A program made the position numbers and the translations under genes. The notes below the pieces were generated by a model that saw only the letters and a list, made by a program, of their open reading frames with translations, was not told the origin of the DNA and did not search any database. Of a stretch of 64,000 nt of DNA, positions 6,952 through 64,000 are shown in pieces. The DNA is from an uncultured Verrucomicrobiota bacterium (GTDB taxonomy: Bacteria > Verrucomicrobiota > Kiritimatiellia > CAIKKV01 > CAITUY01): the NCBI GenBank assembly GCA_964584205.1, contig CAZOZF010000002.1, positions 160 through 64,159 on the forward strand. The letters run 5' to 3'. Every line of letters begins with the position of its first letter. The first letter of the stretch is position 1.

Positions 6952-7019
6952 CAGTGTGGGTTATGAGAAAATAGATGACTGAGGACAAGGTTGGTCTTTC
7001 AGCAAGGGGTGGTGAAGAT

Positions 7020-21354: not shown

Positions 21355-21401
21355 AGGGCTGTCTACCGATTCCTTCAGTTCGGATGAAGGGTAAGGATCT
21401 C

Positions 21402-29800: not shown

Positions 29801-30162
29801 GGGTATTGGGAATCTATTCGACCAAGCCCGGATATGAGGAGCTGGCGATCCGGCCCCAGATCGGCGGTGGTTTGACATTTGCCAAGGGGTATGTGCAGAC
29901 CCCGCGGGGTAAGGTGGCCTCGGAATGGCAGGCCAATGGCACCTCGGTCACGTTGAATGTAAGCATTCCCTTCAACAGCAAGGCCGCCGTCAGTTTCCCG
30001 AAACCAGCGGCCGGTGTTGTCGCTATTTATGAGGGAAGCACCTTGGTCTGGAAGAATGGTGTCCTGGTGGCAAAAACCGTAGGAATGTACGGCGCGAGTG
30101 AGGACGGGAACTACATCCGGTTTATCGTTGGCTCGGGCGATTATTGTTTTAGACAGATGTGA
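26881..30162 (+). CDS. secreted NPCBM + GH78 alpha-L-rhamnosidase
   Basis: aggag RBS 7 nt upstream; NPCBM (FQHGLGTHAPFVAMIRLDGHTGKFHAVVGVNG...GSVEFIVSGDGKVLFRSG); GH78 N-terminal (PVFGWVASHVVRGQKQRGYQILVAS...RYWWKVRVWDEGG) and catalytic hallmark IPTDCCQRDERKGWLGDA. Confidence 0.88.
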   Translation: MMISVARMKPILAILGLSVMLFRLSAVGGETRLEDLPDLELVENLDKTPLKDQSASWTPIQMGGEKFQHGLGTHAPFVAMIRLDGHTGKFHAVVGVNGMTKDRGSVEFIVSGDGKVLFRSGVMKGDVVKDGKVTIPADLPKVIDLDLTGVKRLKLEATIGGDNTWGDDANWADAMFTWKGQAPRIVEIVDDASSVAGDAPPVVKSPDDTIYVPESGTNRVPGAKVDGPRSKAGKNAAPSAPDRLTVEGVREPMGIDNPAPVFGWVASHVVRGQKQRGYQILVASNRKIIDADKGDVWSIQEKESSQQCAIAYAGPSLASRTRYWWKVRVWDEGGSVSPFSQPATFETAMMKPTDWKAQWIGGDFTRMRKEFVVDPVKTIAQARAYVSGQGYYELRLNGKKVGDHVLDPGYTDYKFRALYSTYDVKELLKPGANALGVMLGDAYLIRWELKQPSDKMAVVQIEVKYTDNTTATVVTDPGWLGENRGPMVANSVYVGEVYDARLEDAWDLPGYSGTGWTAVMVKTPPPIVNAQLQAIKVVDTLKPVKMSGKDGDYIFDFGQNIAGWLRISAAAPAGTVMKMDYGEGDWPASSQKDQYTFKGGGVETWEPRFTYHGFRTAKLSGVTGLTSNSVVACVVHSAVEPAGDFTCSSPMLNKIHKAFLWTLVNNMHSIPTDCCQRDERKGWLGDALVTVEAACLNLDMKAFMAKWFRDIQDYQDFRNTNGTVANIAPCPTFELTQPGRRNWESQDIPWNSAAVSIPWDLYMATGDKILLAKHYGMMRRYVEYVRSVSPENICRSNRWGDWTGGPTEAALLSTGYYYRCADLLSRTALELGKTEDAETYAKLAVDIKAAFNKRWLKFDRYYNKNEQVANAMALSFDLVPAERKGAVLARLKQGIEYKGGHLTTGVVGTHCLMNALWRNEAIETAYTLANQKTAPSWGNMIEKGATTIWEFWDGHGSWNHPMLGGPVDAWFYKGVLGIYSTKPGYEELAIRPQIGGGLTFAKGYVQTPRGKVASEWQANGTSVTLNVSIPFNSKAAVSFPKPAAGVVAIYEGSTLVWKNGVLVAKTVGMYGASEDGNYIRFIVGSGDYCFRQM

Positions 30163-36708: not shown

Positions 36709-38709
36709 ATGAGAAGAATGATCAATCTGGCGCGTGTTGTGACGTGCGCCGTGATTCTTTCGGCGGGAATCTCTGTTGCGGTTGCAAATGAGGTTACGGT
36801 TCAGGAGCTGGCCGTCAAGGATGCGCCTGCAGGAGCGGTTTGGCTCGATGGATTTGATTTGGGTTCCGTGGAGACCGGGTGGGGGAAAGTTGGGGCGGGA
36901 AAATCCGCGGCAGGAAAACCGATTACTGTTGGTAAGAAGGCTTTCGTCCACGGTATTGGAGTTCATGCGCCGAGTGTGGCGGGGATTGATCTCGGGAAGG
37001 CCGCAAGCCGGTTTGTTGCAGTGGTTGGGGTAGATGATGAAACCGGAGTCGGTGGATCAGTCGTTTTTCAGGTCTGGGTTGATCGGGTGAAAAAAGCGGA
37101 TTCCGGCCTGATGAAGGGCGGAGATGCCCCTAAATTGATTTCCGTGGATCTGACGGGGGCGGAAAAGATGGCCCTCGTCGTAACCGATGGCAGAAATGGT
37201 AATGATTCCGATCATGCCGACTGGGCTGGCGCCGCGCTTTACACGCAGAGGAATTCAGTCAAATTCGAGCCGGGGCTCTTCACCATCCCGAACGTCATGC
37301 CTAAAATATCCTCAATTGATCAGTCAAAGACGGCCATCAATGGGCCTCGGATTGTCGGTACGACTCCTGGGCGGCCCTTTGTGTTCCTGGTTCCCGCCAC
37401 CGGCGAAGAACTGAGGGACTATACGGCGAAAAAACTTCCCGCCGGTTTGGTGATCGATCCTGATACCGGCATTATATCAGGTTCCGTCGTGAAGCCCGGT
37501 AGCTATGAGGTCATGCTTTCGGTCGCGGGTCGGAGCGGGGTGGCCACCCGTAAGTTGGTGATTGAGGCGGGTGAGCACAAGCTGGCCAGGACGCCGCCGA
37601 TGGGCTGGAATTCATGGAACTGCTGGGCAGGTGCGATTGATGACGCCAAAGTGCGCGCGGCGGCTGATGCCATGGTCGCCAGTGGCCTGGCTGCCCATGG
37701 TTATCAATACATCAATATTGATGACTGCTGGCAGAAAGGACGTGATGCCAATGGGGAAATTGTGCCGAATGCAAAATTTCCAGACATGAAAGCACTGGCC
37801 GATTACGTGCACAGCAAGGGTTTACGGCTGGGGATCTATTCGTCGCCTGGCCCGCAGACCTGTGCCGGTTTCGAGGGTAGTTACCGGCACGAGGAGCAGG
37901 ATGCGAAGACCTACGCGACGTGGGGTATGGATTACCTCAAGCATGACTGGTGCTCTTACGGTTCGGTGGTGACGGCTAAGGTCTACCAGCTCGAGGATTA
38001 CGCGAAACCTTTCAGGATCATGGGCGAGGCGCTCGATGCCTGCGGGCGTGACATCGTTTACAGTCTTTGTCAGTACGGTATGGGTAACGTCTGGGAATGG
38101 GGCGCGGACGTTGGAGGGAATTGCTGGCGTACGACCTATGATATCACCGATATGTGGGAAAGCATGTCCCGCATCGGATTCGGCCAGAATGGGCACGAAA
38201 AGTATGCCGGGCCAGGCCGCTGGAACGATCCGGATATGCTTGTCGTGGGCAGGGTGGGTTGGGGACCGAACCTGCATCCGACCCGGCTCAAATATGTGGA
38301 ACAGGTTACGCATCTAACTCTATGGAGCCTCCTGTCTGCTCCCCTCCTGATCGGGTGTGACATGACGACGATGGATAAATTCACGTTGGACTTGCTCACC
38401 AATGATGAGGTTCTCGACGTTAATCAGGATCCGCTGGGTAAGCCGGCGGGCCGGGTGGCTGAAAATAATGGCATCCAGGTGTGGAGCCGGCCGCTTCAAG
38501 ATGGCGCTGTGGCGGTGGGTATTTTCAACACCGGAATGGAGGACCTTGACGGGATTGTTAAGTGGTCTGATATCGGCGTCCAAGGCAAGCAGACTGTGCG
38601 TGATCTCTGGTTAAAGCAGGATCTGGGTGTCTTTGACGGACAGTACGCAGTCAAGGTGCCTGCGCATGGCGCGTTCATGTTCAAGATCGGAGCGCCACGC
38701 AGGGACTAG
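36709..38709 (+). CDS. secreted NPCBM + GH27 alpha-galactosidase
   Basis: gagagga RBS; NPCBM (FVHGIGVHAPSVAGIDL...FVAVVGVDDETGVGGSVVFQVWVDR); GH27 catalytic motifs GWNSWNCW, INIDDCWQ, LRLGIYSSPGPQTCAG, LKHDWC. Confidence 0.9.
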   Translation: MRRMINLARVVTCAVILSAGISVAVANEVTVQELAVKDAPAGAVWLDGFDLGSVETGWGKVGAGKSAAGKPITVGKKAFVHGIGVHAPSVAGIDLGKAASRFVAVVGVDDETGVGGSVVFQVWVDRVKKADSGLMKGGDAPKLISVDLTGAEKMALVVTDGRNGNDSDHADWAGAALYTQRNSVKFEPGLFTIPNVMPKISSIDQSKTAINGPRIVGTTPGRPFVFLVPATGEELRDYTAKKLPAGLVIDPDTGIISGSVVKPGSYEVMLSVAGRSGVATRKLVIEAGEHKLARTPPMGWNSWNCWAGAIDDAKVRAAADAMVASGLAAHGYQYINIDDCWQKGRDANGEIVPNAKFPDMKALADYVHSKGLRLGIYSSPGPQTCAGFEGSYRHEEQDAKTYATWGMDYLKHDWCSYGSVVTAKVYQLEDYAKPFRIMGEALDACGRDIVYSLCQYGMGNVWEWGADVGGNCWRTTYDITDMWESMSRIGFGQNGHEKYAGPGRWNDPDMLVVGRVGWGPNLHPTRLKYVEQVTHLTLWSLLSAPLLIGCDMTTMDKFTLDLLTNDEVLDVNQDPLGKPAGRVAENNGIQVWSRPLQDGAVAVGIFNTGMEDLDGIVKWSDIGVQGKQTVRDLWLKQDLGVFDGQYAVKVPAHGAFMFKIGAPRRD

Positions 38710-51847: not shown

Positions 51848-53962
51848 ATGAGGAAACTGGGCATTGGGGCCGTTCTAATAAGTGCCGTTCTGTCGGCGCA
51901 GGGTATGAACTACAGCGGGGTTTTTACCGAGCCGCCGAAAAGTGTTCCAACCTACTACATGCCTGATGGGCCCCTGCTGGGGAACGGCGATGTCGGTGTC
52001 GTGCTGGCAGGTCCACCGGAAGAGCAGCGTTTTTACATCGGCAAGAATGACTGGTGGGGGTATGGCGATGGCTCACGCGCGATGCCGGCCGGCGGATTGA
52101 CGCTTGCGATAACCGAGTTGAAAGGCGCGAGCTACCGGCAGGAACAGGATTTGGCTTTGGCGGAAGTCCGAGGCTCGTTCACCAATGGCGAGGTGGTGGT
52201 GCAGACACGGTCGTTTGTTGATGCCGAGTCCAACCTGCTGATAACGGAAGTGAAGTGCGCCGGGACAAAGCCGGTGACGGCCGTTTTTTCACAGAGAAAC
52301 GGTTTAGATGATCCCTGGGGAACCCGACGGACAAGTATTCCATCCGGCATCCTGTGTTGTACACGGGTGAGCGGGGATGCTCCTCCTGAAAAGAGGATGG
52401 AGATAGGGGTCGTGAGCCGCATCATCGGTGGAGCGCTGGTCGTGGACAGCGCAGGCACAATAACGTTGACCCTCAAAGCAGGCGAAGTCGTAACGATTGT
52501 AACGTGTGTGCTCTCCAAACTGGACGATCCTGGTTTTCTTGAGTCGGCAAAAAAGAAAGTGTCAGCATTGGAGATAAAGGACTTTCGGTCCATTTCAATC
52601 AAGCACAGGGAGTGGTGGAAGAATTTCTGGTCAAAATCGTTTATAGAGATTCCCGATAAGGAGATTGAGAAGCGCTGGTACGCAGCCTTGTATGTGATGG
52701 GGTCTTGTAGCAAGGCGGGGAAGGTCGCGCCCGGGTTGTGGGGGTGCTGGGTCACCATTTTTGCCCAATGGCAGGGCGATTATCACTTGAATTATAATTT
52801 TCAGGCGCCGTATTACATCGTCTATTCCAGTAACCATGCCGATTTGTCAGCCCCCTATTATCGGGCGATCCTGGAGTCGGTGCCTCGAGCCAGAGAGGTG
52901 GCAAGGAAGAACGGGTGGAAAGGCGTGCACTTTCCAGTATGTATTGGTCCCCGGGGTATTTTTCCGGAGGGGGAAAGGGATCATGGACAGCGTTCGAATG
53001 CCGCGTATGTGGCCTTGAATTTCATCTGGCAGTACCAGTATACGAAGGATAAGGAATTCCTGAAGACGACGGCCTATCCGTATCTGCTGGAAGTGGCGGC
53101 ATTCTGGGAGGATTACCTCAAGCTGGAAAACAAACGGTATGTGATCTACAAGGATGCCATCCATGAGGGGTCAGGCGATAACATAAACCCGATTCTCTCG
53201 CTGGGGCTTGTCAGGACACTTTTCACGAGCCTGATATCCATGAGCAAGGATATCGGTGTGGATGAGGCCCGGCGTGCGAAGTGGCAGGACATCCTGGACA
53301 AGCTCAGCGCATTCCCGTTACAGGAGCGCAATGGGAAAACCGTGTTCCGTTATACGGAGAAGGGGTTGGATTGGTGGAAAGACAACACTCTGGGTATCCA
53401 GCATATCTTTCCGTGTGGCACCATCGGCCTGGACAGCGATCCAAAGCTGCTGGAAATCTGCCATAACACAATTGACGAGATGGGGCGTTGGGCTGATTAC
53501 AACGGCTTTTCATCGTGGTATACCGCCTGTGCCCGTATCGGGTACGATCCCAAAACGATCCTGACGAAAATGCGTACGGAGTGTGATAAGCATTCCTTTC
53601 CGAATCTCCTGCTATTTTATGGTGGTGGCGGAATAGAGAGTTGTGGTGGCTTTCTGGCGATCAACGAGATGTTATTGCAGAGCCATGAGGGTGTGCTCCG
53701 CTTTTTCCCTTGCTGGCCCAGGGATCAGGATGCCCGCTTTGGGACGCTGCGCGCTGTGGGTGCCTTCCTTGTCAGCGCCGAGCTGAAGAATGGCGTGGTC
53801 GGCGGCGTGAAGATCATCAGTGAGAAGGGGGCCGATTGTACCGTGCAGAACCCCTGGCCCGGCAAGAAGGTGACCATCTCCGGCCGGAAGCCGCTTGAGG
53901 GCGCGCGGTTCACGTTCAAAACCAAGCCGGGCGAAATCATGGAATTGCGGCCGCAAACATGA
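51848..53962 (+). CDS. secreted GH95-like (alpha/alpha)6-barrel glycosidase (paralog 2 of 2)
   Basis: ggagg RBS 5 nt before the ATG at 51848 (the ORF track began at an upstream TTG, 51836); signal peptide MRKLGIGAVLISAVLSAQG; LLGNGDVGVVL...KNDWWGYGDG, WQGDYHLNYNFQAPYY; colinear with 49592..51823. Confidence 0.6.
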   Translation: MRKLGIGAVLISAVLSAQGMNYSGVFTEPPKSVPTYYMPDGPLLGNGDVGVVLAGPPEEQRFYIGKNDWWGYGDGSRAMPAGGLTLAITELKGASYRQEQDLALAEVRGSFTNGEVVVQTRSFVDAESNLLITEVKCAGTKPVTAVFSQRNGLDDPWGTRRTSIPSGILCCTRVSGDAPPEKRMEIGVVSRIIGGALVVDSAGTITLTLKAGEVVTIVTCVLSKLDDPGFLESAKKKVSALEIKDFRSISIKHREWWKNFWSKSFIEIPDKEIEKRWYAALYVMGSCSKAGKVAPGLWGCWVTIFAQWQGDYHLNYNFQAPYYIVYSSNHADLSAPYYRAILESVPRAREVARKNGWKGVHFPVCIGPRGIFPEGERDHGQRSNAAYVALNFIWQYQYTKDKEFLKTTAYPYLLEVAAFWEDYLKLENKRYVIYKDAIHEGSGDNINPILSLGLVRTLFTSLISMSKDIGVDEARRAKWQDILDKLSAFPLQERNGKTVFRYTEKGLDWWKDNTLGIQHIFPCGTIGLDSDPKLLEICHNTIDEMGRWADYNGFSSWYTACARIGYDPKTILTKMRTECDKHSFPNLLLFYGGGGIESCGGFLAINEMLLQSHEGVLRFFPCWPRDQDARFGTLRAVGAFLVSAELKNGVVGGVKIISEKGADCTVQNPWPGKKVTISGRKPLEGARFTFKTKPGEIMELRPQT

Positions 53963-53987
53963 AGAACCTTCTTAAGGAGATGCTAAA

Positions 53988-56453
53988 ATGAAGAAAATCT
54001 TATGCAGGACCGTGATGCGTTTCATCCTGTTGGTGCTTTTGCCTTCCAGCATGATGGGAGCAGGCTCTGCTAACATGCAGTTAAGACGCACGGTCAATCT
54101 TGACGGCCCGTGGCAGATTGCCCAGGGCGGTATGGATAAGGTTCCTGATAAATTCGAGCATACGGTCCCGGTGCCCGGTCTGGTGGATCTGGCGACCCCG
54201 GCGTTTAGTGACGTTGGCATCCGGACTGGCGTGCGTAGCGCCTTCTGGTATCGGAGGACGTTCACGCTGGAGGGCAAAGTTCCTTCCGTGGCCACGCTTA
54301 AAATCGGCAAAGCCATGTTCGGGGCAAGTGTGATTCTGAACGGCAAGTCGCTCGGGGAACATCTGCCCTGTTTCACGCCCGGATTGTTCAACGCGCGCGA
54401 GGCGCTGAAAGCTGGCGAGAACGAAGTGGTCATCCGCATCGGTGCGACCCGGGAATCCTTGCCGAATACCATGCCCAGCGGTTTTGACGAGGAGAAGAGC
54501 CGTTACATTCCTGGACTATTCGATTCCGTCGAGTTGCTGCTATCGGGGACGCCCGCCATCGTCAACGTTCAGGTTGCGCCGGATGTGACCAACCAGCAGG
54601 CTCGGGTGCGTCTCTGGCTGGCGCAGGTGACGGAGGGGGAGGTGACCGTTGAAGTGAGCGAGGCGAAGTCAGGCAAGGTGGCTGGCAAGGCGACAGGTCG
54701 CCTGGTGCCCGGTGTGGAGCAAACGCTGGATATGGTTGTGCCGCTGACCCAATGCCAGCTGTGGTCGCCGGAAACCCCATTCCTGTATGAGCTTACCGCC
54801 AGGACGCCTGGGGACAGCTTCACGACGCGCTTCGGGCTGCGCGAGTTCCGGTTGGATCCTGTAACAGGACGGGCAATGCTCAATGGCAAACCCTATTTTA
54901 TGCGCGGCAGCAATTTTACCGTGTACCGGTTTCTTGAGGACGCTGACCGTGCGGCGTTGCCCTGGGATGAAGCCTGGGTGCGCCTGCTGCATAAGCGCGT
55001 GAAAGATATGCACTGGAACTCCTTACGCTACAGCATCGGGTTCCCTCCTGAAGCCTGGTACCGAATTGCAGACGAGGAAGGTATCCTGATCCAGGATGAA
55101 TTCCCCATTTGGAAGCTGCCGGATACCGTGAAGACACCTGAACTGGCGAAAGAATATGAAGAGTGGATGCGCGAACGGTGGAACCATCCTTGCGTTGTGA
55201 TCTGGGACGGTAATAATGAGACATGGACCGACCAGACGGCGCCCGCGATCAAGCAGGTGCGCGGTCTCGACATGTCAAACCGTCCATGGGACAACAGCTA
55301 CCAGTACCCGGCGGAGCCTGGTGATGTGTACGAGGCGCACCCTTATCATTTCAATGAGAACAACTTCATACTGGCTGATCTCGCTACTGCCGATAAAGTT
55401 CCGCAGGGGAACGTTACGAGGAACGACAGTAAACATGCGGTGATCATCAACGAGTATGGTTGGCTTTGGTTGACCCGAGACGGCCTGCCCACGACGCTCA
55501 CCAAGAAACATTATCAGCGATGGCTTGGAAAAGATTCCACGGTAGAGCAGAGGCGGAACCTCTATGCGCGCTATCTTGCGGCGGACACGGAATTCTGGCG
55601 TGCCAATCGCAAGGTTGCAGGGGTGATGGAATTCTCGTCGTTGAGCTATTCACGTCCAAATGGCCAGACCAGCGATCATTGGCTTGATGTGAAAAAGCTG
55701 ACCTGGGAGCCTGAGTTCTATCATTATGTGAAGGACGCATTCGCTCCGGTGGGACTCATGCTCGATACCTGGCGTGAGCGCTGGATGATCGGGGAGACGG
55801 CGACGTTTCCGGTTGTGGTCGTCAACGATCTGGAAAAGCCGTGGAAGGGACAGGTTCAGTTTTGCCTTAAGAAACAGGACAAGGTCATTGCAAAACAGAA
55901 ACTTCCTGCTGAGGTGGCAGGTCTGGGCACCAACCGGATTGAGTTTGCCTCGTTAGTCTTGAAGGAAGGCGGTGACTATGTTGCGGAAGCCACTCTGCTG
56001 GATACGCCCGACGGTCCGGTGAGCAGTGTGCGCCACTTCACGGCTTATACGCCGGCGCAGATAGGTCTTGCATACGGCAAACCAGTAAAGGCCTCATCTT
56101 CTGAAAATGCGAGAAACTGCACATCGCCTGACGCCGTGACGGATGGACGCCCTGACACCGGCTGGATGTCACAGGCATCCGATCCGCAGTGGATCGCCGT
56201 TGATCTCGGAGCTTCAACCAAGATCAGCCGGGTGGAGTTGATGTGGGCGCTGGCGTCCGGTGGCGGTTATGCGATCCAGGTTTCGGATGACGGTCAGAAT
56301 TGGACTGATGCTTATAAAACCAATGAAGGCCGGGGCGGCAATGAGACGATAACGTTCAATCCGGTGAGTGCGCGATGGGTTCGCGTTTACGGAACTCGCA
56401 GAAACACCGGCTGGGGATACTCGATGTGGGAGATTCGCGTGTTCGAGAAATAA
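53988..56453 (+). CDS. secreted GH2-like glycosidase with C-terminal F5/8 type C (discoidin) domain
   Basis: Signal peptide; GH2-type sugar-binding N-terminus and TIM-barrel blocks (NGKPYFMRGSNFTVYRF..., WNHPCVVIWDGNNE); C-terminal discoidin-like domain (PDTGWMSQASDPQWIAVDLGASTKISRVELMWA...WEIRVF). Confidence 0.7.
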   Translation: MKKILCRTVMRFILLVLLPSSMMGAGSANMQLRRTVNLDGPWQIAQGGMDKVPDKFEHTVPVPGLVDLATPAFSDVGIRTGVRSAFWYRRTFTLEGKVPSVATLKIGKAMFGASVILNGKSLGEHLPCFTPGLFNAREALKAGENEVVIRIGATRESLPNTMPSGFDEEKSRYIPGLFDSVELLLSGTPAIVNVQVAPDVTNQQARVRLWLAQVTEGEVTVEVSEAKSGKVAGKATGRLVPGVEQTLDMVVPLTQCQLWSPETPFLYELTARTPGDSFTTRFGLREFRLDPVTGRAMLNGKPYFMRGSNFTVYRFLEDADRAALPWDEAWVRLLHKRVKDMHWNSLRYSIGFPPEAWYRIADEEGILIQDEFPIWKLPDTVKTPELAKEYEEWMRERWNHPCVVIWDGNNETWTDQTAPAIKQVRGLDMSNRPWDNSYQYPAEPGDVYEAHPYHFNENNFILADLATADKVPQGNVTRNDSKHAVIINEYGWLWLTRDGLPTTLTKKHYQRWLGKDSTVEQRRNLYARYLAADTEFWRANRKVAGVMEFSSLSYSRPNGQTSDHWLDVKKLTWEPEFYHYVKDAFAPVGLMLDTWRERWMIGETATFPVVVVNDLEKPWKGQVQFCLKKQDKVIAKQKLPAEVAGLGTNRIEFASLVLKEGGDYVAEATLLDTPDGPVSSVRHFTAYTPAQIGLAYGKPVKASSSENARNCTSPDAVTDGRPDTGWMSQASDPQWIAVDLGASTKISRVELMWALASGGGYAIQVSDDGQNWTDAYKTNEGRGGNETITFNPVSARWVRVYGTRRNTGWGYSMWEIRVFEK

Positions 56454-56743
56454 GTATGCATGGGGAAATATTGGGGAATGCCATCTGCCCGAAATGAAAA
56501 TGTTTCACTTCATAAAGTGCAGGTTACGTGCCGAAACGAATCAGGCCATTTCAGTTTTGTTTTTAGCCCTGGTGTTTTCCGCGGTGAAGGCGGAATGTGT
56601 GGAGACGTGTCCTGTGTCGAAATACACGGCGGTGTTCACGGCACCGCCAAGGTTTAACCCGCCGCTGGACTCGCAGGGGAGAGCTGCAACATCGACAATC
56701 CGAGGGCAAATAAGGCTGTCAGTCTATATGTTTTCAGTTTGGC

Positions 56744-56791
56744 GTGACTCGAATAACTCGGAAATTGCGCCGATTCGCTCTGTTCAGGTGG
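56744..56791 (+). promoter_or_regulatory. conserved upstream motif copy F (gtgactcgaataactcggaaattgcgccgattcgctctgttcaggtgg)
   Basis: ~91 bp upstream of the 56882 start; lies in the only long (~430 bp) relatively AT-rich intergenic gap of the island. Confidence 0.45.
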
Positions 56792-56881
56792 GCTGCCCTG
56801 TGTAAACGTATAAGTCAGTAACGGATACACTTGAGCGGGAATGATCATGGCTTGTCAGAAGATGAACTGTGGACATAATGG

Positions 56882-59266
56882 ATGGGAAAATTCATGAAAG
56901 CAACGAAAGTCCGGTTTTTCAGCAGGGTTGCGTTGGCGGTGTTGTGTCTGTGGGCCTTCCCCGGCGTGAACCGGGTTGCGTTCGCTGGAGTCGGGATACA
57001 GGCCACAATGGGCAAGATCATGCCCTTAGGCGATTCGATCACCAGAGGTAACGACGTTCTCGGCGGCTACCGCTCCCCGCTATCTACCCTCCTGACCAAC
57101 TGGCTTGACACTTTCACGTTCGTGGGGTCGGCGACCGACAATGCGACCACAAATCTCACGGCCGCCGGCCAGACGCATCACGAGGGCCACGGCGGCTATA
57201 CCATCTCAGCAGGAGGTGCTGGCAACTTATACTCTAATCTGGTGACATGGATCGGACCTAGCGGGGCAGCCCCGGATAGGATTCTGTTGATGATCGGTAG
57301 CAACGATATCAATTTGTCGTATGACAAGGCTAACGCCCCGGCTCGCCTGAGCGCCCTCATTGACCTCATCTATTTCTACAGGCCGAGTGTGAAACTCTAT
57401 GTGGCGTCGATCATTCCTAATGGACTTGGGAAAGAATCCGACGTGCTGGCCTACAACGCTGCCATCCCGGGTATCGTGGCCAGCAACCAGGTTCTTGGGC
57501 GGAGCGTGGTATATGTCCCCATGCATGATGCGTTGAGTACCAACACGGACTTGGCCGACGGGTTGCATCCCAACGCGGTCGGATACCAGAAAATGGCACA
57601 GGTCTGGAATGAGGCGCTCAATACAAGTGCTACTGGGATGGTCACCACTACCACGCTGGATTCATCGGTCAACCCGTCCGTCTATGGTCAGCAGGTCATT
57701 TTCACGGCGACGGTTAAAACCAACGGTGTTGTGGCGATGGGAACGGCCGGGAATATCGTGTTTTCGGTGGATGGGTTAGCGAGGGCCTTCGTGGAGGTTT
57801 CTAACGGGGCCGCTGCCTATACGAACAGTAGCCTCGCAACGGGAGCTCATGCCATGCGGGCCGTCTATGTCGGCGATGGAACGTATGCCGCCAGTGCGGT
57901 CAATTTCGCCCAGACCAACAATCCGGGCCCCGCCAGCAAGCTGGGGTTTGGTCAACAACCTGCGGCGACGAGACCGGGCTTTGCGATCAGCCCGGCTGTG
58001 ACGGTGCTGGTTCAGGATGTCGACGGCAATATCGTGACCGGCGATAACAGTACCGATGTGACGATCAGTGGGACTGTCTTTTCAGGTGACAGTACTCTGA
58101 CTGCGAAAGCTTCCGGCGGTGTGGCGACGTTCAGTAATCTCAAGCCAATGACGTTGGGTGATAGCAATACGCTGGCGGCCAGCGCTGCTTCACTCGCCGG
58201 GTCGACCTCTAGTCCGTTCCATGTGGGTATTGTCGTCAATTCCGGGAGTTTTATCCCTCCTAGAAACACGAACACGACCGTGGGAGTCTGGGATTCATAC
58301 ATTATCAGTGATAGCCAGTCGTTTATTGTGGGCAACTGGAACACCGGAGGTGCGATTCTGAACCAGACCGGTGGGACCATCACGTTTACCGGTACTTGGG
58401 TGGGTCGTATGGGTATTGGCTCTTCGGATGGGCCAACCTGGGGTGAATACAATATGTCTGGAAATGCAGTCTTCAGCGCGACGGGCCTTAATGGCGCCAG
58501 TAGCGTCTATTCCTACACGATCACGGGGTATTTGGGGAAATCCAAGCTAACGATGACCGACACGGCCACAGCGAATATTGGTAGTCTGACGCTAAAACCT
58601 TTCAGCGGTGCCGCTGCAAAGATTGAGCTATCGGGTCACGCCAGCTTGACTATTGGTAAGATCGGAAACAACACAGATGGTTACATCATTGGCGCCGGCT
58701 GTTATATTGATTTTGTTTCCGGTAGTCAGGCCACGCTCACGATAACCGGCACGCATGACTTTACGAATCTGGTTAGCGCGGGCTCCATCCGGGTCGATGG
58801 GATTGCACAATCCAACTTCAGTGCCTTTGCAGTATCGGGCAATACCTTGTCGCTTGTTGCAACGCTGACTGCGAGTGCGCATCCGACGCCGACATTGTGG
58901 CTGAACCAGTATTACGGCGTAACGAATTATGCAGCTGTGGCAGAAGTGGATACTGATGGGGACGGAATGAGTGCTTGGGAGGAGTACATTTCGGGGACCG
59001 ACCCAACCAACACGCAGTCTTCATTCAAAATAATAGAGTTGACGAGAGTGAGGTCGACAAACGTTGTGGTCTGGTTGGGCGGCAATACCAGTCTGCCTCC
59101 ATTCGGGATATTGGTATCCAGTAACCTGAGTGCCATAGCGGGGGGCTGGACTCAACTTTCAACAAAAGTCCGGTCGGCAGATGGAACTAATTTCTGGTAT
59201 GACGATTCCACTGCGTCATTGATAATGCCACGCTACTATAAGATTGTCGCCACCAATGCACCCTAA
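56882..59266 (+). CDS. secreted SGNH/GDSL-type hydrolase (esterase) fused to Ig-like domains and a C-terminal region with a TSP3/dockerin-like Ca-binding motif
   Basis: Signal peptide; SGNH blocks (GDSIT; LLMIGSNDI; DGLHPN); Ig-like domains similar to those in 40990..44193 (VTVLVQDVDGNIVTGDNSTDVTISG...FSNLKPMTLGDSNTLAASAASLAGSTSSPFHV); C-terminal DTDGDGMSAWEEYISGTDPTN; alternative start at 56894. Confidence 0.7.
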   Translation: MGKFMKATKVRFFSRVALAVLCLWAFPGVNRVAFAGVGIQATMGKIMPLGDSITRGNDVLGGYRSPLSTLLTNWLDTFTFVGSATDNATTNLTAAGQTHHEGHGGYTISAGGAGNLYSNLVTWIGPSGAAPDRILLMIGSNDINLSYDKANAPARLSALIDLIYFYRPSVKLYVASIIPNGLGKESDVLAYNAAIPGIVASNQVLGRSVVYVPMHDALSTNTDLADGLHPNAVGYQKMAQVWNEALNTSATGMVTTTTLDSSVNPSVYGQQVIFTATVKTNGVVAMGTAGNIVFSVDGLARAFVEVSNGAAAYTNSSLATGAHAMRAVYVGDGTYAASAVNFAQTNNPGPASKLGFGQQPAATRPGFAISPAVTVLVQDVDGNIVTGDNSTDVTISGTVFSGDSTLTAKASGGVATFSNLKPMTLGDSNTLAASAASLAGSTSSPFHVGIVVNSGSFIPPRNTNTTVGVWDSYIISDSQSFIVGNWNTGGAILNQTGGTITFTGTWVGRMGIGSSDGPTWGEYNMSGNAVFSATGLNGASSVYSYTITGYLGKSKLTMTDTATANIGSLTLKPFSGAAAKIELSGHASLTIGKIGNNTDGYIIGAGCYIDFVSGSQATLTITGTHDFTNLVSAGSIRVDGIAQSNFSAFAVSGNTLSLVATLTASAHPTPTLWLNQYYGVTNYAAVAEVDTDGDGMSAWEEYISGTDPTNTQSSFKIIELTRVRSTNVVVWLGGNTSLPPFGILVSSNLSAIAGGWTQLSTKVRSADGTNFWYDDSTASLIMPRYYKIVATNAP

Positions 59267-59294
59267 AAGAAGTAATGCCAAGGCAGGAGTGGAT

Positions 59295-62200
59295 ATGAAA
59301 TGGGTTCTTATGGTTGCATTTTGGGCCGTCACTTCCCTGGCAGGTGAACAGCCTGCCTTGAAGATGCATCCGTTCAATAAGGATTGGCAAGTTGTCATCA
59401 ATGCGGCCACTGCGACAACGTCTACGGTATGGCAGGCGGTCACGTTGCCTCATACCGCCCGGTTGGAGTCCGTGTTGCCTGGAAATAAGATGTGGATGGG
59501 TGACTGTCTCTACCGAAAAGTGTTCTTTGTCAGTCCGGAGTGGGAGAACAAACGGGTTTGTCTCAATATTGAGGCGGCCATGCATACTGCAGAAGTCTTT
59601 CTGAATGAGAAACGGGTGGCATCGCATATGGGAGGGTATCTTCCTTTTCAGGCCGATCTGTCGGGACTGTTGGCGGTCGGATCCACCAATGAGCTGTTGA
59701 TCAAGCTGGATAATCGGGAAACTCCGGATATTCCGCCCGGGCGGCCTTACAGCAAATTGGATTTCAACTGGTATCATGGTCTTTATCGTAATGTTGATTT
59801 ACAGGTTACTGATCCGCTTCATATTACTGATCCCGTGGCCGCCAATCTGCCGGCATCGGGCGGGATCTTTGTGACGTATCCCTCGGTATCGCCTGATTCG
59901 GCCGCCGTTCAGGTTCAGGTTCATGTAAAGAATGACCGATCCGTGTCGGCTAGGTTTGTGGTGCGGTGTGCCCTTGCGGGTCAAAACGTTCAATCCGAAC
60001 CGGCAACATTGGCGCCGGGGGAGATGAGCGCCTATACCCTCTCTTTGGTTGTCCCTGCACCTAAGCTCTGGAGTCCGGATGCCCCTCATTTATATCCGCT
60101 TACCACCGAGATCCGCACGGCGGAGGGTGTTGTAGTTGAGAGTCAATGCCTCCGGGTGGGGATCCGTTCCGTGACCTGCAAGGCCGGCCGGTTTGCCATT
60201 AATGGCCGACCGATGTATTTACGCGGAACGAACCGCCATCAGGAATATCCCTACATCGGTTATGCCCTTCCGGATAGTGCCCAGTGGCGAGACGCCGCTA
60301 TGATCAAGCAGGCTGGGTTTGCCCTAGTTCGCCTTTCCCATTACCCGAACTCCAGTGCCTTTCTGGATGCTTGTGACTATTACGGCATTGTCGTTATGGA
60401 GCCTGTACCGGGCTGGCAATTCTACAAGAACGGGCTTTTTGCTGAACGTTCCCTGCAGATGGCTCGTGACATGATCCGGCGTGACCGTAATCATCCCGCC
60501 TGCATATTCTGGGAGACTTCCCTGAATGAGGCCAAACACCCGGATGCCTTCCTCAAACAACTGCACGAGATCGTTGGGCAGGAATATCCTGGGGCGCTTT
60601 CGGCCAGCCATATCAATAAATTCCATGATATTTTCATTCCGGCCCGGCAGCACACGAATGGCCCGAAATTCTGGGATGAGTGGAAACAGGGCGATAAGCC
60701 CATCTTTACGGCGGAATATGGTGATTGGGAATATTACGCCGACAATGCCGCCAATTTCAACCAGACCGGCATCAAGGAACTCAAGGGCGAGGAGATTAAC
60801 AGCCGGCAACGGCGGTCGGACGGAGAGCGGCGCATGCTGCAACAGGCGCTGAATTTCCAGGAGAGTCACAACCAGAACCATGTTTGTCCTTCGATGATCG
60901 GTGACGCCAATTGGTTGTTCAACGATTACAGTCGCGGCTGTGCGCCGGATCATTGCACCAGCGGGATCGTGGATGTTTTCCGGCTGCCGAAGTTTGTCTA
61001 TTATTTTTATCAAAGCCAGCGTGACCCGACGGATGGGATCCTGGCCAACCCCGGGGTGTTTATTGCCTCCTATTGGACTGCACAATCGTCGATTCCCGTC
61101 CGGGTTTTCTCCAATGGTGATGAGGTCGAGCTCCTGCTCAATGGGGTGAGTCTAGGGCGGCGCAAGCCTGACCAAGACCACTTTTCACGATATCTGGCGC
61201 ATGCGCCGTTTACGTTTCCTGTCAAGGCATTCGAGCCCGGTGAACTCAAGGCAATCTCCTACATGGGTGGCAGACCTGTCGCACAGCATGTGATTCGAAC
61301 TCCAGAGAAACCTGCCAGGATTAGATTGGTAGCCCGGTTGTCGGGTATTCCCATTTCCAGGAATTCCAAGGACGCATTTTTTGTCCATGCTGAGATTGTA
61401 GACCGCAACGGAACGCTCGTTCCGGATGCTGCTTTGCCGGTGAGTTTCGTAACCACGGAGGCCGAATTGGCTTCGCCTGGACAGGTTAACGCTGAAGCCG
61501 GAATCGCAACGGCATTGCTATTATCTGGCGGGACAGATCGGCCTGTTGTTGTCCAGGCGACGGCGGAGGGACTTGAGTCGGATTCACTTGTCCTTCTGGC
61601 TCAGGATACGCTTCGCAATACCATCAGTCTTGACGGCCAGTGGCAGATTGGTCAGGGCGTGATGGACCAGGTGCCGGAGAAATTCGAGCACACGGTTCCG
61701 GTGCCCGGACTGGTGGATCTGGCGACTCCGGCCTTTGGTGATATTGGGATCAAGAGCGGACAGCGGAGTGCCTTTTGGCATCCGCGAACGTTCACGCTTG
61801 ATGCCCTGCCGCCGGTGGCTCGCCGTCAACAAATCATAACGATTCATGCCGCACGGTTCACGGTTCTGACACCGAATTGTGTGCGTTTTGAATACCAGAA
61901 AGACGGGAAATTCACGGATGAACCGACCCTTTTCGTTAATCGACGTGTGATCAACCCGGTTCCTTTTGTTCAGCGTTTTGAGGGTAACGCCACTGTCATT
62001 GAAACCAGTTCGATCCGTATCCGATATATCCCGGATGGAAGGGCTTTTCATCCAGGGAATCTCCAGGTGATGATCCGTAAAGGGACAGGATGGGTTGAAT
62101 GGACGCCTGGCGCAAAGCCTTTTTGTAACCTCCGGGGGCCGATCTCGACACTCGACAATGTCAGCGGGCCGGTGGAACTCCCTGAAGGGCTTCTTGCTAG

Positions 62201-64000
62201 AGATGGTTGGTCGGTTGTTGACGATACCGGGAAACCCATTTTCGTCAACGACTGGATCGCGCCGCGTCCCGTTGAGCGGGGGCTTGACTGGTATCTTTTC
62301 GGCTATGGTTCGGATTACAAGGCGGCGCTCGCCTCCCTAGCGGCGATTTCGGGGCCAGTGCCCATCCCCCGGAAGCATGTTTTCGGCTCCTGGTATTGTC
62401 GATGGTTTGATTATACCGAGGCGCAGTTCCGTCAAATTGCAGAAGAATACAGGCAACACGATTTTCCGCTCGATATCCTGGTGATGGATATGGGATGGCA
62501 TACGCAGAAGGACGCCAAGACTGGCATCGGGCACTTTATCGGATTGGGTTGGACCGGTTGGAGTTGGAATCGCGCGCTCCTGCCCAATGCCGAGAAGCTC
62601 CTCGCTGACCTTCGAGCCGATGGTTTGTTTGTTACCTTGAATGCCCATCCGCACGATGGGGTCCGTGCCCATGAAACCTGTTACCCGGATTTCATGCGGA
62701 TGCTGGGGAAAGACCCGGTAAAGGATGAAGTGCCGAAATTCAATGCGGGGGACCGGACCTATATGGATGCTTACTTCAAGGCTGCACACTGGCCCCTGGA
62801 GAAGGCGGGGGTTGATTTCTGGTGGGTGGATTGGCAGCAGGACAGCAAGCCCGGCTTGGAGTATGTTCCTGGCGTACCTGGATTGCGACATCTCCCCTGG
62901 CTTAATCACCTTTACTTCACCTATAGCCAGACACTGGGAAAACGCGGATTGGGCTTCAGTCGCTGGGGTGGGTGGGGGGACCAGCGCAACCCCATCCAGT
63001 TTTCAGGTGATTCCGGAGGATGTTGGGAGATGTTGAAGTTCGAGATTGAGTTCACCTTGCGTTCGGGCAACAGCGGGTGTTTCTTCTGGGCTCATGACAT
63101 CGGGGGATTTTTTGATGGCAACGATGCGGAATTACTCGCGCGCTGGATTCAGTTTGGCGCGGTGAGTTCATCGCTTCGGCTCCATAGTTACGGCAACATG
63201 GATCGGCGCCCCTGGCTCTGGGGGCCTGAAACGGAGCGGTCTGCTCGCATTGCCTACCATTTGAGGTCTCAGTTGCTGCCCTATATTTACTCCAGTGCTC
63301 GCCAGTGCAACACTAAAGCCCTACCGTTGCTCAGGCCTCTCTATCTTGAATATCCTGAACAAGAGTTTGCCTACAGTCATATGAACGAATATTTTTTCGG
63401 GGAGCACCTGCTTGCCGCTCCTGTTACGACCAAGGGGGAAGGGGTGCGAAAAGTTGCCGGACAAACCCTCTGGATTCCTGAGGGGACATGGTTCCACTGG
63501 TTCAGTGGCGAGTCATTTGTTGGCCCGAAGACCGTTTTTCTCAAGTCCACACTGGATGAGTTTCCCTTGTTGGTGCGCGGTGGGACTCCGATTCCCTTAC
63601 AGCCGTATACGGCGCGGATGACTACCACCCCGCTCACCAATCTGGTGGTGCGCTGCTGGCCCGGAAAAGACGGGGTCATGGGAATCAATGAACTCTACGA
63701 AGACGATGGGCAGTCTGAACGATATCGCTATGGCGATTATGCTGTCACAAAGTTGTCGTATATCCGTCAAGGTGAACATATTACTATTGGCGTTGAGCCG
63801 GTGGTTGGTACATATCAGAGCCAACCGCTAAAACGTACCGTTACCATCGAGTTGCCGTGCGTCTCACCCGTGGTCAAGGTTTTGTCAAACGATCAGGCCA
63901 TAACAGCCGAGTATGATCGAAAAACCGCTACCTGTCGGATCATTTTGCCTGACCGCGATATCCGATCAAGGCTGACGATCAAAGTTGAAGTCAAAAGTGA
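59295..64000 (+). CDS. giant bifunctional glycosidase, 3'-incomplete (runs off the window end): N-terminal GH2 (beta-galactosidase-like) + internal beta-sandwich + C-terminal GH31 (alpha-xylosidase/alpha-glucosidase-like)
   Basis: Not in the ORF track because no stop occurs before the window end. I translated the frame continuously from the ATG at 59295 (aggag RBS upstream; signal peptide MKWVLMVAFWAVTSLAG) to 64000 and spot-checked it at 60300, 61080-61620, 62340, 63060 and 63960. GH2 blocks: DFNWYHGLYRNV, RGTNRHQEYPYIG...VRLSHYPNS...CDYYGIVVMEPV, NHPACIFWETSLNEA. GH31 blocks: LDILVMDMGWH, GVDFWWVDWQQD, GCFFWAHDIGGF. Confidence 0.75.
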   Translation, partial: MKWVLMVAFWAVTSLAGEQPALKMHPFNKDWQVVINAATATTSTVWQAVTLPHTARLESVLPGNKMWMGDCLYRKVFFVSPEWENKRVCLNIEAAMHTAEVFLNEKRVASHMGGYLPFQADLSGLLAVGSTNELLIKLDNRETPDIPPGRPYSKLDFNWYHGLYRNVDLQVTDPLHITDPVAANLPASGGIFVTYPSVSPDSAAVQVQVHVKNDRSVSARFVVRCALAGQNVQSEPATLAPGEMSAYTLSLVVPAPKLWSPDAPHLYPLTTEIRTAEGVVVESQCLRVGIRSVTCKAGRFAINGRPMYLRGTNRHQEYPYIGYALPDSAQWRDAAMIKQAGFALVRLSHYPNSSAFLDACDYYGIVVMEPVPGWQFYKNGLFAERSLQMARDMIRRDRNHPACIFWETSLNEAKHPDAFLKQLHEIVGQEYPGALSASHINKFHDIFIPARQHTNGPKFWDEWKQGDKPIFTAEYGDWEYYADNAANFNQTGIKELKGEEINSRQRRSDGERRMLQQALNFQESHNQNHVCPSMIGDANWLFNDYSRGCAPDHCTSGIVDVFRLPKFVYYFYQSQRDPTDGILANPGVFIASYWTAQSSIPVRVFSNGDEVELLLNGVSLGRRKPDQDHFSRYLAHAPFTFPVKAFEPGELKAISYMGGRPVAQHVIRTPEKPARIRLVARLSGIPISRNSKDAFFVHAEIVDRNGTLVPDAALPVSFVTTEAELASPGQVNAEAGIATALLLSGGTDRPVVVQATAEGLESDSLVLLAQDTLRNTISLDGQWQIGQGVMDQVPEKFEHTVPVPGLVDLATPAFGDIGIKSGQRSAFWHPRTFTLDALPPVARRQQIITIHAARFTVLTPNCVRFEYQKDGKFTDEPTLFVNRRVINPVPFVQRFEGNATVIETSSIRIRYIPDGRAFHPGNLQVMIRKGTGWVEWTPGAKPFCNLRGPISTLDNVSGPVELPEGLLARDGWSVVDDTGKPIFVNDWIAPRPVERGLDWYLFGYGSDYKAALASLAAISGPVPIPRKHVFGSWYCRWFDYTEAQFRQIAEEYRQHDFPLDILVMDMGWHTQKDAKTGIGHFIGLGWTGWSWNRALLPNAEKLLADLRADGLFVTLNAHPHDGVRAHETCYPDFMRMLGKDPVKDEVPKFNAGDRTYMDAYFKAAHWPLEKAGVDFWWVDWQQDSKPGLEYVPGVPGLRHLPWLNHLYFTYSQTLGKRGLGFSRWGGWGDQRNPIQFSGDSGGCWEMLKFEIEFTLRSGNSGCFFWAHDIGGFFDGNDAELLARWIQFGAVSSSLRLHSYGNMDRRPWLWGPETERSARIAYHLRSQLLPYIYSSARQCNTKALPLLRPLYLEYPEQEFAYSHMNEYFFGEHLLAAPVTTKGEGVRKVAGQTLWIPEGTWFHWFSGESFVGPKTVFLKSTLDEFPLLVRGGTPIPLQPYTARMTTTPLTNLVVRCWPGKDGVMGINELYEDDGQSERYRYGDYAVTKLSYIRQGEHITIGVEPVVGTYQSQPLKRTVTIELPCVSPVVKVLSNDQAITAEYDRKTATCRIILPDRDIRSRLTIKVEVKS

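Follow-up and report, generated by a model that had tools for sequence, protein, structure and literature searches.

How did two glycoside hydrolases that related bacteria encode in separate genes come to be read as a single polypeptide? The question is raised by the end of a 64,000-nucleotide (nt) stretch of DNA from an uncultured Verrucomicrobiota bacterium (assembly GCA_964584205.1, contig CAZOZF010000002.1; the whole stretch is called the window below). Here, one plus-strand open reading frame (ORF) carries an N-terminal half of glycoside hydrolase family 2 (GH2), a C-terminal half of family GH31 and, between them, a short insert resembling the beginning of another GH2-like gene of the window, gene 53988. 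A first-pass annotation made from the letters alone had taken this ORF for a gene fusion generated by recombination. We find that it is very probably a genuine, lineage-specific and in-frame fusion of neighbouring secreted-glycosidase genes, with a filler from the 53988 family acting as a tether.

The ORF is open in frame 1 from position 59295 to the end of the window at 64000, 1568 codons without an interruption. Its TGA stop lies 46 nt beyond the window end and was read from Logan contig L001 (run SRR12261226, 10,988 nt), which is 100% identical to window 53071-64000 and contains the same ORF; the full product is 1583 amino acids (aa) long (P0001). The JGI/NCBI contig of 64,666 nt encodes an identical fusion protein (P0121), for which the start was called 13 codons further 5'. 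This alternative start (MHPKRSNAKAGVD..., window 59256-59294) overlaps the 3' end of a GDSL gene. The ATG at 59295 is the better start because stand-alone GH2 orthologs start MKW.../MKS..., and the Logan gene call also starts the fusion there. The features on which the argument rests are the following:

59295..64000, plus strand: fused GH2-linker-GH31 ORF, running 46 nt past the window to TGA (open frame, identical Logan contig, P0121)
59295..59342, plus strand: predicted Sec signal peptide of the fusion (MKWVLMVAFWAVTSLA), read from the sequence, with a putative cleavage site
59295..61598, plus strand: GH2 module, aa 1-768 (Pfam, blastp), the whole stand-alone ortholog to its last codon
61599..61820, plus strand: 74-codon insert, aa 769-842, matching codons 28-102 of 53988-family genes (blastp, codon alignment)
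61821..64000, plus strand: GH31 module, aa 843-1583 (aa 1568 at the window end), the stand-alone orthologs minus their first ~35 codons
53988..56453, plus strand: gene 53988, a GH2-like enzyme of 821 aa that ends in an F5/8 type C (CBM32-like) domain (Pfam)
54069..54293, plus strand: segment paralogous to the insert, codons 28-102 of gene 53988 (window tblastn with the insert, codon alignment)
56882..59266, plus strand: GDSL esterase gene directly upstream of the fusion, the synteny anchor (Pfam)

When the full protein was compared by blastp with the genes of related loci, it resolved into three co-linear pieces. Residues 1-767 correspond to residues 1-767 of the 768-aa stand-alone GH2 genes (L002, L004; 84-85% identity), residues 769-842 to residues 28-102 of gene 53988 (69% over 75 aa, E = 5e-27), and residues 841-1567 to residues ~32-37 through to the end of the 756-762-aa stand-alone GH31 genes (L002, L004, L005; 81-83% identity). 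The open frame, the Pfam domains and this co-linearity bear out the earlier claim that a single uninterrupted frame joins a complete GH2 to a complete GH31. The ORF is a multi-catalytic carbohydrate-active enzyme (CAZyme) with two complete modules of different families, each co-linear with a full stand-alone ortholog.

Where exactly were the pieces joined? At the left breakpoint, codon alignment places the stop codon of the orthologous GH2 genes (TAG/TAA) exactly on the GCT codon of the fusion (Ala769), and this codon aligns with Ala28 of gene 53988, the final residue of its signal peptide (...GAGSA/NMQ). At the right breakpoint, homology to gene 53988 ends at ...PPVA842 and homology to GH31 runs from R843 (ARRQQ, as in L005 and L006); a 3-4-nt microhomology (G GCN, an Ala codon common to both parents) is possible at this junction. 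Both breakpoints are in frame and lie 222 nt apart, and the 222 nt (74 codons) between them, one codon fewer than the matching part of gene 53988, are read in the native frame of the donor family. What the insert has displaced is precisely the GH2 stop codon, the spacer between the genes (plus a GDSL_2 gene in some relatives) and the GH31 signal peptide. Because the insert starts at the last residue of the donor family's signal peptide, the chimera has one N-terminal signal peptide and no internal one, those of the donor and of GH31 both being lost. The remaining signal peptide, the sole one in the protein, is of the type with which the stand-alone GH2 orthologs start (MKWFPVVALWAVSSLA and MKSITMMALWVVSSMA). 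A promoter and terminator scan of 59000-62200 gave counts within ~1.5 standard deviations of the shuffled expectation and no site at either junction.

The first-pass annotation had asked whether orthologous loci carry two separate genes, and the answer is a clear yes. Two ENA GROS21 scaffolds (L002/L003) encode, in order, GDSL, GDSL_2, GH2 (768 aa), a 238-nt spacer, GH31 (759 aa), RhaT and an aldose epimerase; a JGI contig (L004, Ga0373119_1479469) encodes GH95, SSF, URO-D, GDSL, GH2 (768 aa), GDSL_2 (441 aa) and GH31 (756 aa). GDSL_2 is also followed by GH31 in a Logan contig (L005, SRR24319168), and metagenome-assembled genome (MAG) ELA573 (L006) has a stand-alone GH31 with its own signal peptide. 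The stand-alone loci and the fusion locus thus show the same genes in the same order, on one strand throughout. They differ in that the former keep the GH2 stop, the GH31 signal peptide and either 238 nt or GDSL_2 in between, where the fusion locus has 74 codons. Synteny extends upstream: the GDSL gene of the window and the one that immediately precedes the stand-alone GH2 in L004 are 85.6% identical, and the second GH95 gene of the window is 89.5% identical to a partial GH95 gene in L004.

All five stand-alone GH31 orthologs (L002-L006; 79-83% identical) have their own signal peptide and then pass straight into homology with fusion residue 843. Three close GH31 homologs (P0123, P0124, P0125; 81-83% identity, 756-762 aa) likewise cover only 89% of a query that contains the insert, and the 53988-like piece occurs in none of the orthologous GH2 and GH31 genes checked. 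Since the related loci hold separate genes without the insert, the fused state is derived. The comparison agrees with the earlier proposal of an in-frame fusion by rearrangement with loss of the GH31 signal peptide, and it lends no support to the proposal that the ancestral GH31 began with the N-terminal module of gene 53988, which is seen in 0/5 stand-alone orthologs (L002-L006). At most, a hybrid of that kind could have been an intermediate, one that no ortholog displays. Two candidates were rejected. The GDSL_2 gene lying between GH2 and GH31 in L004 was considered as the source of the insert, but the translations are dissimilar and the gene has no homolog in the window. L006 had appeared to be a GH31 carrying the insert, with a scan match from residue 781, yet the locus itself proved to hold a normal, separate GH31 gene that has a signal peptide of its own.

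What, then, is the source of the insert? Within the window, 61624-61801 repeats 54094-54271 over 178 nt at 80% identity, and the insert finds gene 53988 with E = 2e-42 by blastn and 3e-32 by tblastn. The junction repeat of ~175 nt reported by the first-pass annotation is therefore real, and the two peptides quoted for it are correct; its identity, given as ~85%, is 80.3% over the same segment. Homology in codon register exceeds that stretch and covers 61599-61820 against residues 28-102 of gene 53988. Neither blastn nor tblastn found a third copy of the repeat, be it within the window or at the related loci L002-L005. Gene 53988, whose catalytic region has a beta-D-galactofuranosidase as its nearest solved match (9j6m, E = 5e-22), represents, within the window, the family from which the insert came.

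In the family alignment, the insert shares 70% aa and 73% nt identity with gene 53988, with one codon missing. It is closer to a gene from another metagenome (L094), at 76% aa and 75% nt identity, and has the one-codon deletion and several residues in common with it; gene 53988 and the L094 gene are themselves 76% identical in aa over the insert stretch. Synonymous divergence (dS) between the insert and gene 53988 is ~0.9, against 0.7-1.5 between this organism and related species. Because the insert is as deeply diverged as species are, and the deletion is common to it and L094, two choices are left: an old event, or another family member as template. The neighbouring gene would thus be a paralog of the donor and not necessarily the donor itself. 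The earlier statement that the fusion re-uses the 5' end of the neighbouring gene is not borne out, the L094 gene being as close or closer. On its own contig (Ga0247841_10000896, 1-8600), the L094 gene has GH95-like genes on both sides; in the window, two GH95 genes precede gene 53988, and the GH95-53988 pairing seems conserved across distant relatives.

A degenerate DNA scan of JGI metagenomes for FEHTVPVPGLVD retrieved 8 further 53988-family genes. The motif is N-terminal in all of these full-length genes from this looser scan (8/8) and internal in none. A stricter scan of metagenome DNA for an 18-residue common peptide gave no match, the source contig included, in a collection that does not hold this sample; a search of proteins with the 76-aa insert brought up just five short candidates, all N-terminal fragments of 53988-family proteins, and missed the source proteins as well. 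The insert departs from the family at positions invariant in nine other members (FWYRR to FWHPR, QIA to QIG), changes that fit the loss of its original structural role. At its core, 57 nt at 61680-61736 and 54150-54206 both encode KFEHTVPVPGLVDLATPAF, with 19 identical residues, 91% nt identity and five synonymous differences, and the 30-nt blocks that flank this core drop to 43-80% identity. Strong constraint on a family motif could account for the identical block, as could gene conversion between the insert and gene 53988. One further family member, on an ENA contig (L086, 10001-12472), is broken into four consecutive ORFs of 104, 387, 264 and 87 aa, which looks like frameshift errors or a pseudogene.

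Is the N-terminal half a complete GH2 enzyme? Pfam recognizes Glyco_hydro_2_N (PF02837, aa 68-170, 39.8 bits, cut-off 28), Glyco_hydro_2 (PF00703, aa 193-291, 49.8 bits, cut-off 23), Glyco_hydro_2_C (PF02836, aa 294-416, 80.7 bits, cut-off 21) and DUF4982 (aa 599-663, 59.9 bits, cut-off 23.9), followed by Glyco_hydro2_C5 (aa 687-765) at 30.1 bits, just below its cut-off of 32. The N-terminal, Ig-like and TIM-barrel domains of the family are thus all present. The half contains RNHPACIFWETSLNE, with E412 (60528-60530, SLNE), and FTAEYGDW, with E474 (60714-60716, AEYG); by the end coordinates of the HMMER match, E412 lines up with E461 of LacZ. From the family motifs, we take E412 (the NE motif after NHP) to be the acid/base and E474 (the EY motif) to be the nucleophile. 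The nearest solved structures are beta-galactosidases (5EUV/5LDR, E = 7e-63), and JGI gives the name beta-galactosidase to many homologs of this half.

In its domains (N, Ig-like, TIM-barrel, DUF4982 and C5) and in its putative acid/base and nucleophile motifs, the GH2 half resembles the five-domain GH2 beta-galactosidases with DUF4982 (Paracoccus sp. 32d, PDB 5EUV/5LDR; Bacteroides 6D1P, 6ED1). In most homologs of ~865 aa, domain 5 is followed by a C-terminal extension of ~70 aa, which the 768-aa clade lacks; in the fusion, the position of this extension is taken by the linker and GH31. One high-scoring protein (P0002, 833 bits) was set aside as a relative of the fusion, being a GH2 with an internal duplication and no GH31. 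In this 1085-aa protein, encoded on a 3752-nt ENA contig, the part that starts at the TIM barrel is present twice in tandem, so that query residues 315-742 match twice; the duplication may be real or an assembly artefact.

In the C-terminal half, a profile search finds the GH31 catalytic domain on which the first-pass reading depended: the TIM barrel (PF01055) spans aa 1023-1333 (175.9 bits, cut-off 23.5), the third domain (PF21365) aa 1343-1431 (63.9 bits) and DUF5110 (PF17137) aa 1464-1521 (46.7 bits), which gives the TIM barrel and the proximal and distal C-domains of the family. The top PDB match is 7WJ9, the enzyme LlGH31_u1 of Lactococcus lactis (E = 2e-122, 35.7% identity over 631 aa). 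LlGH31_u1 (PDB 7WJ9-7WJF, 7WLG) is an alpha-1,3-glucosidase strictly specific for nigero-oligosaccharides, with D341 as nucleophile and D394 as acid/base (PMC9061262). D1179 (FWWVDWQQ, 62829-62831), Q1181 and D1239 (FSGDSGG, 63009-63011) of the fusion align with its D341, Q343 and D394. The two enzymes also have the same domain order, beginning at the same strand of the N-domain. They differ in residues that contact the sugars. Tyr99, His427 and Ser455, the subsite +1/+2 residues behind the strict alpha-1,3 specificity of LlGH31_u1 (PMC9061262), make contacts beyond subsite -1 and are replaced by Gly, Phe and Tyr in the fusion; Tyr99, which comes from the neighbouring protomer, shows no strict conservation across homologs of LlGH31_u1 (PMC9061262). 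Furthermore, the match starts at the chain start of LlGH31_u1, a hexamer without a signal-peptide stretch whose N-domain is needed for hexamer assembly (PMC9061262), whereas the fusion GH31 is predicted to be exported and is tethered to GH2.

By sequence, the fusion GH31 thus falls in the GH31_u1 clade, and its specificity may differ from that of LlGH31_u1. The first-pass annotation had read it as an alpha-xylosidase, which together with a beta-galactosidase would trim the side chains of xyloglucan. This reading found no support because alpha-xylosidases match far more weakly (YicI, E = 5e-27; 7kmp, 2e-26; MeXyl31, 1e-22) than the nearest characterised GH31, the nigerose-specific alpha-1,3-glucosidase. 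A relative of the GH31 half that is fused to a GH13 amylase-type domain (P0292) points, by analogy, to alpha-glucoside chemistry. The depositors' name of PDB 7WJ9-7WJF and 7WLG is 'Alpha-xylosidase', in conflict with the published activity (PMC9061262). With such a legacy label, name-based transfer from entries of the 7WJ9 type would mis-annotate the whole GH31_u1 clade.

Do both halves still work? Pairwise ratios of nonsynonymous to synonymous divergence (dN/dS) between the fusion and the orthologs are 0.10-0.14 for the GH2 half and 0.07-0.08 for the GH31 half, and the values between orthologs are 0.10 and 0.08-0.12, respectively. Moreover, dN is no larger from fusion to ortholog than from ortholog to ortholog. 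Both halves appear to have retained their function. For the insert, dN/dS is 0.09-0.23. In an AlphaFold2 (AF2) model of residues 680-1040, the insert has a predicted local distance difference test (pLDDT) score below 50 and no secondary structure, and the adjoining GH31 N-domain scores 73-96; the alignment behind the model was shallow and composite, and the C-terminal part of GH2 was poorly modelled, full-length GH2 rows aligning badly to the sub-sequence. Positions 47-119 of Pfam PF22666 correspond to residues 83-153 of gene 53988. The insert would thus represent approximately the first 40% of a GH2 N-terminal beta-sandwich, a part that could not fold as that domain alone, and it is probably a flexible linker between the two modules.

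Could the contig itself be wrong, joining a GH2 gene, a fragment of another gene and a GH31 gene that do not belong together? We consider an assembly or binning chimera very unlikely, even though the source is a metagenome assembly, the junction sequence has a paralog 7.5 kb away, and the case is made at the level of assemblies, two of them, which may draw on one set of reads. The repeat copies have at most 17 nt in common as an exact run, so that de Bruijn graphs built with the usual k would not connect them, and the window contains no second occurrence of any 19-mer from 61500-61900. A chimera of this shape would take two misjoins at a distance of 222 nt, each of them in frame and each cutting out a signal peptide with precision. 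The fragment also matches no other sequence in hand, the two assemblies (JGI/NCBI and Logan) agree base for base with different contig ends, and synteny with the relatives is intact on both flanks. The assembly join at a repeat that the first-pass annotation had kept as its alternative is unlikely for the same reasons. Alternatively, the fusion could be real in the DNA and yet a recent accident, with one or both modules inactive or misfolded and the gene decaying. Only a single lineage carries it, a truncated beta-sandwich fragment in mid-protein could be aggregation-prone, and a bulky N-terminal fusion might disturb hexamer assembly via the N-domain, as needed by LlGH31_u1 (PMC9061262). However, the 4.75-kb frame is intact without a stop, the catalytic residues of GH31 and the putative ones of GH2 are kept, dN/dS is ~0.1 with dN not raised relative to the stand-alone orthologs, and the insert is ~27% diverged in DNA from its nearest relatives, so that the ORF could have stayed open for long; an accident of this kind seems to us improbable. 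A small chance is left for the view that selection keeps the insert as a working element, in a three-gene mosaic where a domain fragment has taken on a new role. It could, for example, dock by a beta-strand onto the GH31 N-domain or the 53988 protein, or set the geometry of the active sites. This view stays viable because of the 19-residue identical block and the low dN/dS of the insert.

How, then, might the tethered fusion have arisen and been kept? We propose that a rearrangement removed the export signal of GH31. Only an in-frame join behind an exported protein would have kept GH31 in the same compartment, which may be why this product survived. As one N-terminal signal peptide remains and those of the donor and of GH31 are gone, the fusion would have preserved GH31 export. 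The insert would act as a flexible tether of ~75 residues, and a single Sec export would carry two independent retaining exo-glycosidase active sites: a beta-galactosidase-like site in GH2 and, in GH31, a site of the 'u1' clade that is most likely an alpha-glucosidase. The two activities would then be delivered close together and in a fixed 1:1 ratio to oligosaccharides released by the surrounding CAZyme island.

Two routes to this product come into question: two in-frame deletions that trimmed a once-intervening 53988-family gene, or one deletion patched with a copied 222-nt segment. They are rivals on the route alone and not on the present nature of the locus. In the two-step route, a weaker form of the idea in the first-pass annotation, a 53988-family gene once stood between GH2 and GH31. 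A first deletion would have joined donor codon ~102 to GH31 codon ~36, giving a secreted GH31 with the donor signal peptide and its first 75 mature residues; a second, again in frame, would have taken out everything from the GH2 stop through the spacer to the end of the donor signal peptide. We hold this route tentatively, as a serious possibility. It leaves an exported, working enzyme after each step, and it is consistent with an insert that keeps the native frame of the donor and whose start falls on the boundary of the donor's signal peptide, with a GH2/GH31 slot that varies among relatives (GDSL_2 in L004, empty in L002) and with 53988-family genes adjoining GH95 genes in such islands. On the other hand, it requires two precise in-frame deletions, and in no relative does a 53988-family gene occupy the GH2/GH31 slot or a GH31 begin with that module. 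In the one-step route, DNA was deleted or broken once, between the end of GH2 and the beginning of the mature part of GH31, and the repair copied ~222 nt of a 53988-family gene by template switching or as an ectopic patch. The copied piece is short and keeps the frame exactly, a family member lies 7.5 kb upstream on the same strand, and the right junction shows the possible 3-4-nt overlap (G GCN), a putative microhomology read from the present junction. This route is possible but rather doubtful: DNA identity between the insert and the neighbour is only 73% (80% in the core), with a dS of ~0.9 as deep as related-species divergence, and the one-codon deletion common to the insert and L094 is absent from the neighbour. 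Given this divergence and the shared deletion, the copying would have to be old, or its template another paralog.

Several points weigh against a functional fusion with a passive tether: (i) the two assemblies, 100% identical over 10.9 kb, may share one sample and are then independent assemblies, not independent observations; (ii) the specificities of both halves are predicted from at most 36% identity to characterised enzymes; (iii) the shallow alignment makes the low pLDDT weak evidence for disorder; (iv) the 19-residue block is identical to that of gene 53988, with only synonymous changes in the DNA, so that the insert could still be constrained; and (v) there is a single fusion sequence, in which selection before and after the fusion is inseparable.

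The fusion lies in a same-strand CAZyme island of 50 kb, with three GH95 genes, two GH78, a GH43, a GH27, a GH36 and a weak GH36-like match, a GH127-like gene, three GH2, SASA and GDSL esterases, and four enzymes headed by NPCBM. A second two-enzyme ORF of 1288 aa (21351-25217, plus strand) combines an N-terminal NPCBM with a GH78 alpha-L-rhamnosidase core and a C-terminal GH43. The NPCBM/NEW2 start is common to four plus-strand enzymes: 18973-21354 (beta-helix/GLAA-B-like), 21351-25217 (GH78-GH43), 26881-30162 (GH78) and 36709-38709 (GH27). This genome thus seems to re-use N-terminal modules habitually, and against that background the insert at 61599 is less surprising. The island is headed by a giant surface/autotransporter-like protein of 2427 aa (8862-16145, plus strand) with at least 8 PATR repeats plus Invasin_D3 and Big_1 domains, preceded by a PATR protein of 582 aa (6975-8723, plus strand).

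How does the fusion compare with known systems? A search of 5.8 billion clusters gave no other protein covering both halves among its best matches, and in an exhaustive HMMER search of 1.84 billion representatives with a junction-centred 541-aa query, 0 of the best 150 matched both sides; a literature search for GH2-GH31 fusions returned no relevant report. Two Anaerolineales MAG loci (L063, L065), with matches spanning residues 64-1568, had appeared to be independent GH2-GH31 fusions and proved to be two adjacent genes, GH31 then GH2. As at our locus, GH31 and GH2 are adjacent on one strand in these pairs, which suggests functional coupling; they differ in that GH31 comes first, the ORFs are separate with a spacer, and the GH2 is of another, 580-aa type.

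The locus is valuable because each of the three parental pieces is identifiable and the two breakpoints are resolved at the codon level. It offers a natural example in which a GH2 stop and a GH31 signal peptide were replaced by a fragment of a third gene that lacks its signal peptide, and it illustrates how fusion can save the export of an enzyme encoded downstream, and how part of a folded domain can find new use as a linker. The locus may also serve as a natural template for engineering GH2-GH31 enzymes with two activities. Other members of the same two clades occur in CE2-GH2-GH53 (P0382, where a relative of the GH2 half is fused to a GH53 galactanase), GH13-GH31 (P0292), GDPD-GH31 (P0333) and GH31-histidine phosphatase (P0286) proteins. 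None of these pairs GH2 with GH31; like the fusion described here, each has at least two catalytic modules for the same glycan on one polypeptide, and their sequences indicate that both clades readily join fusions. Multi-enzyme glycosidase fusions are common and well known, and the GH2-GH31 fusion is apparently a one-off case of this ordinary event.

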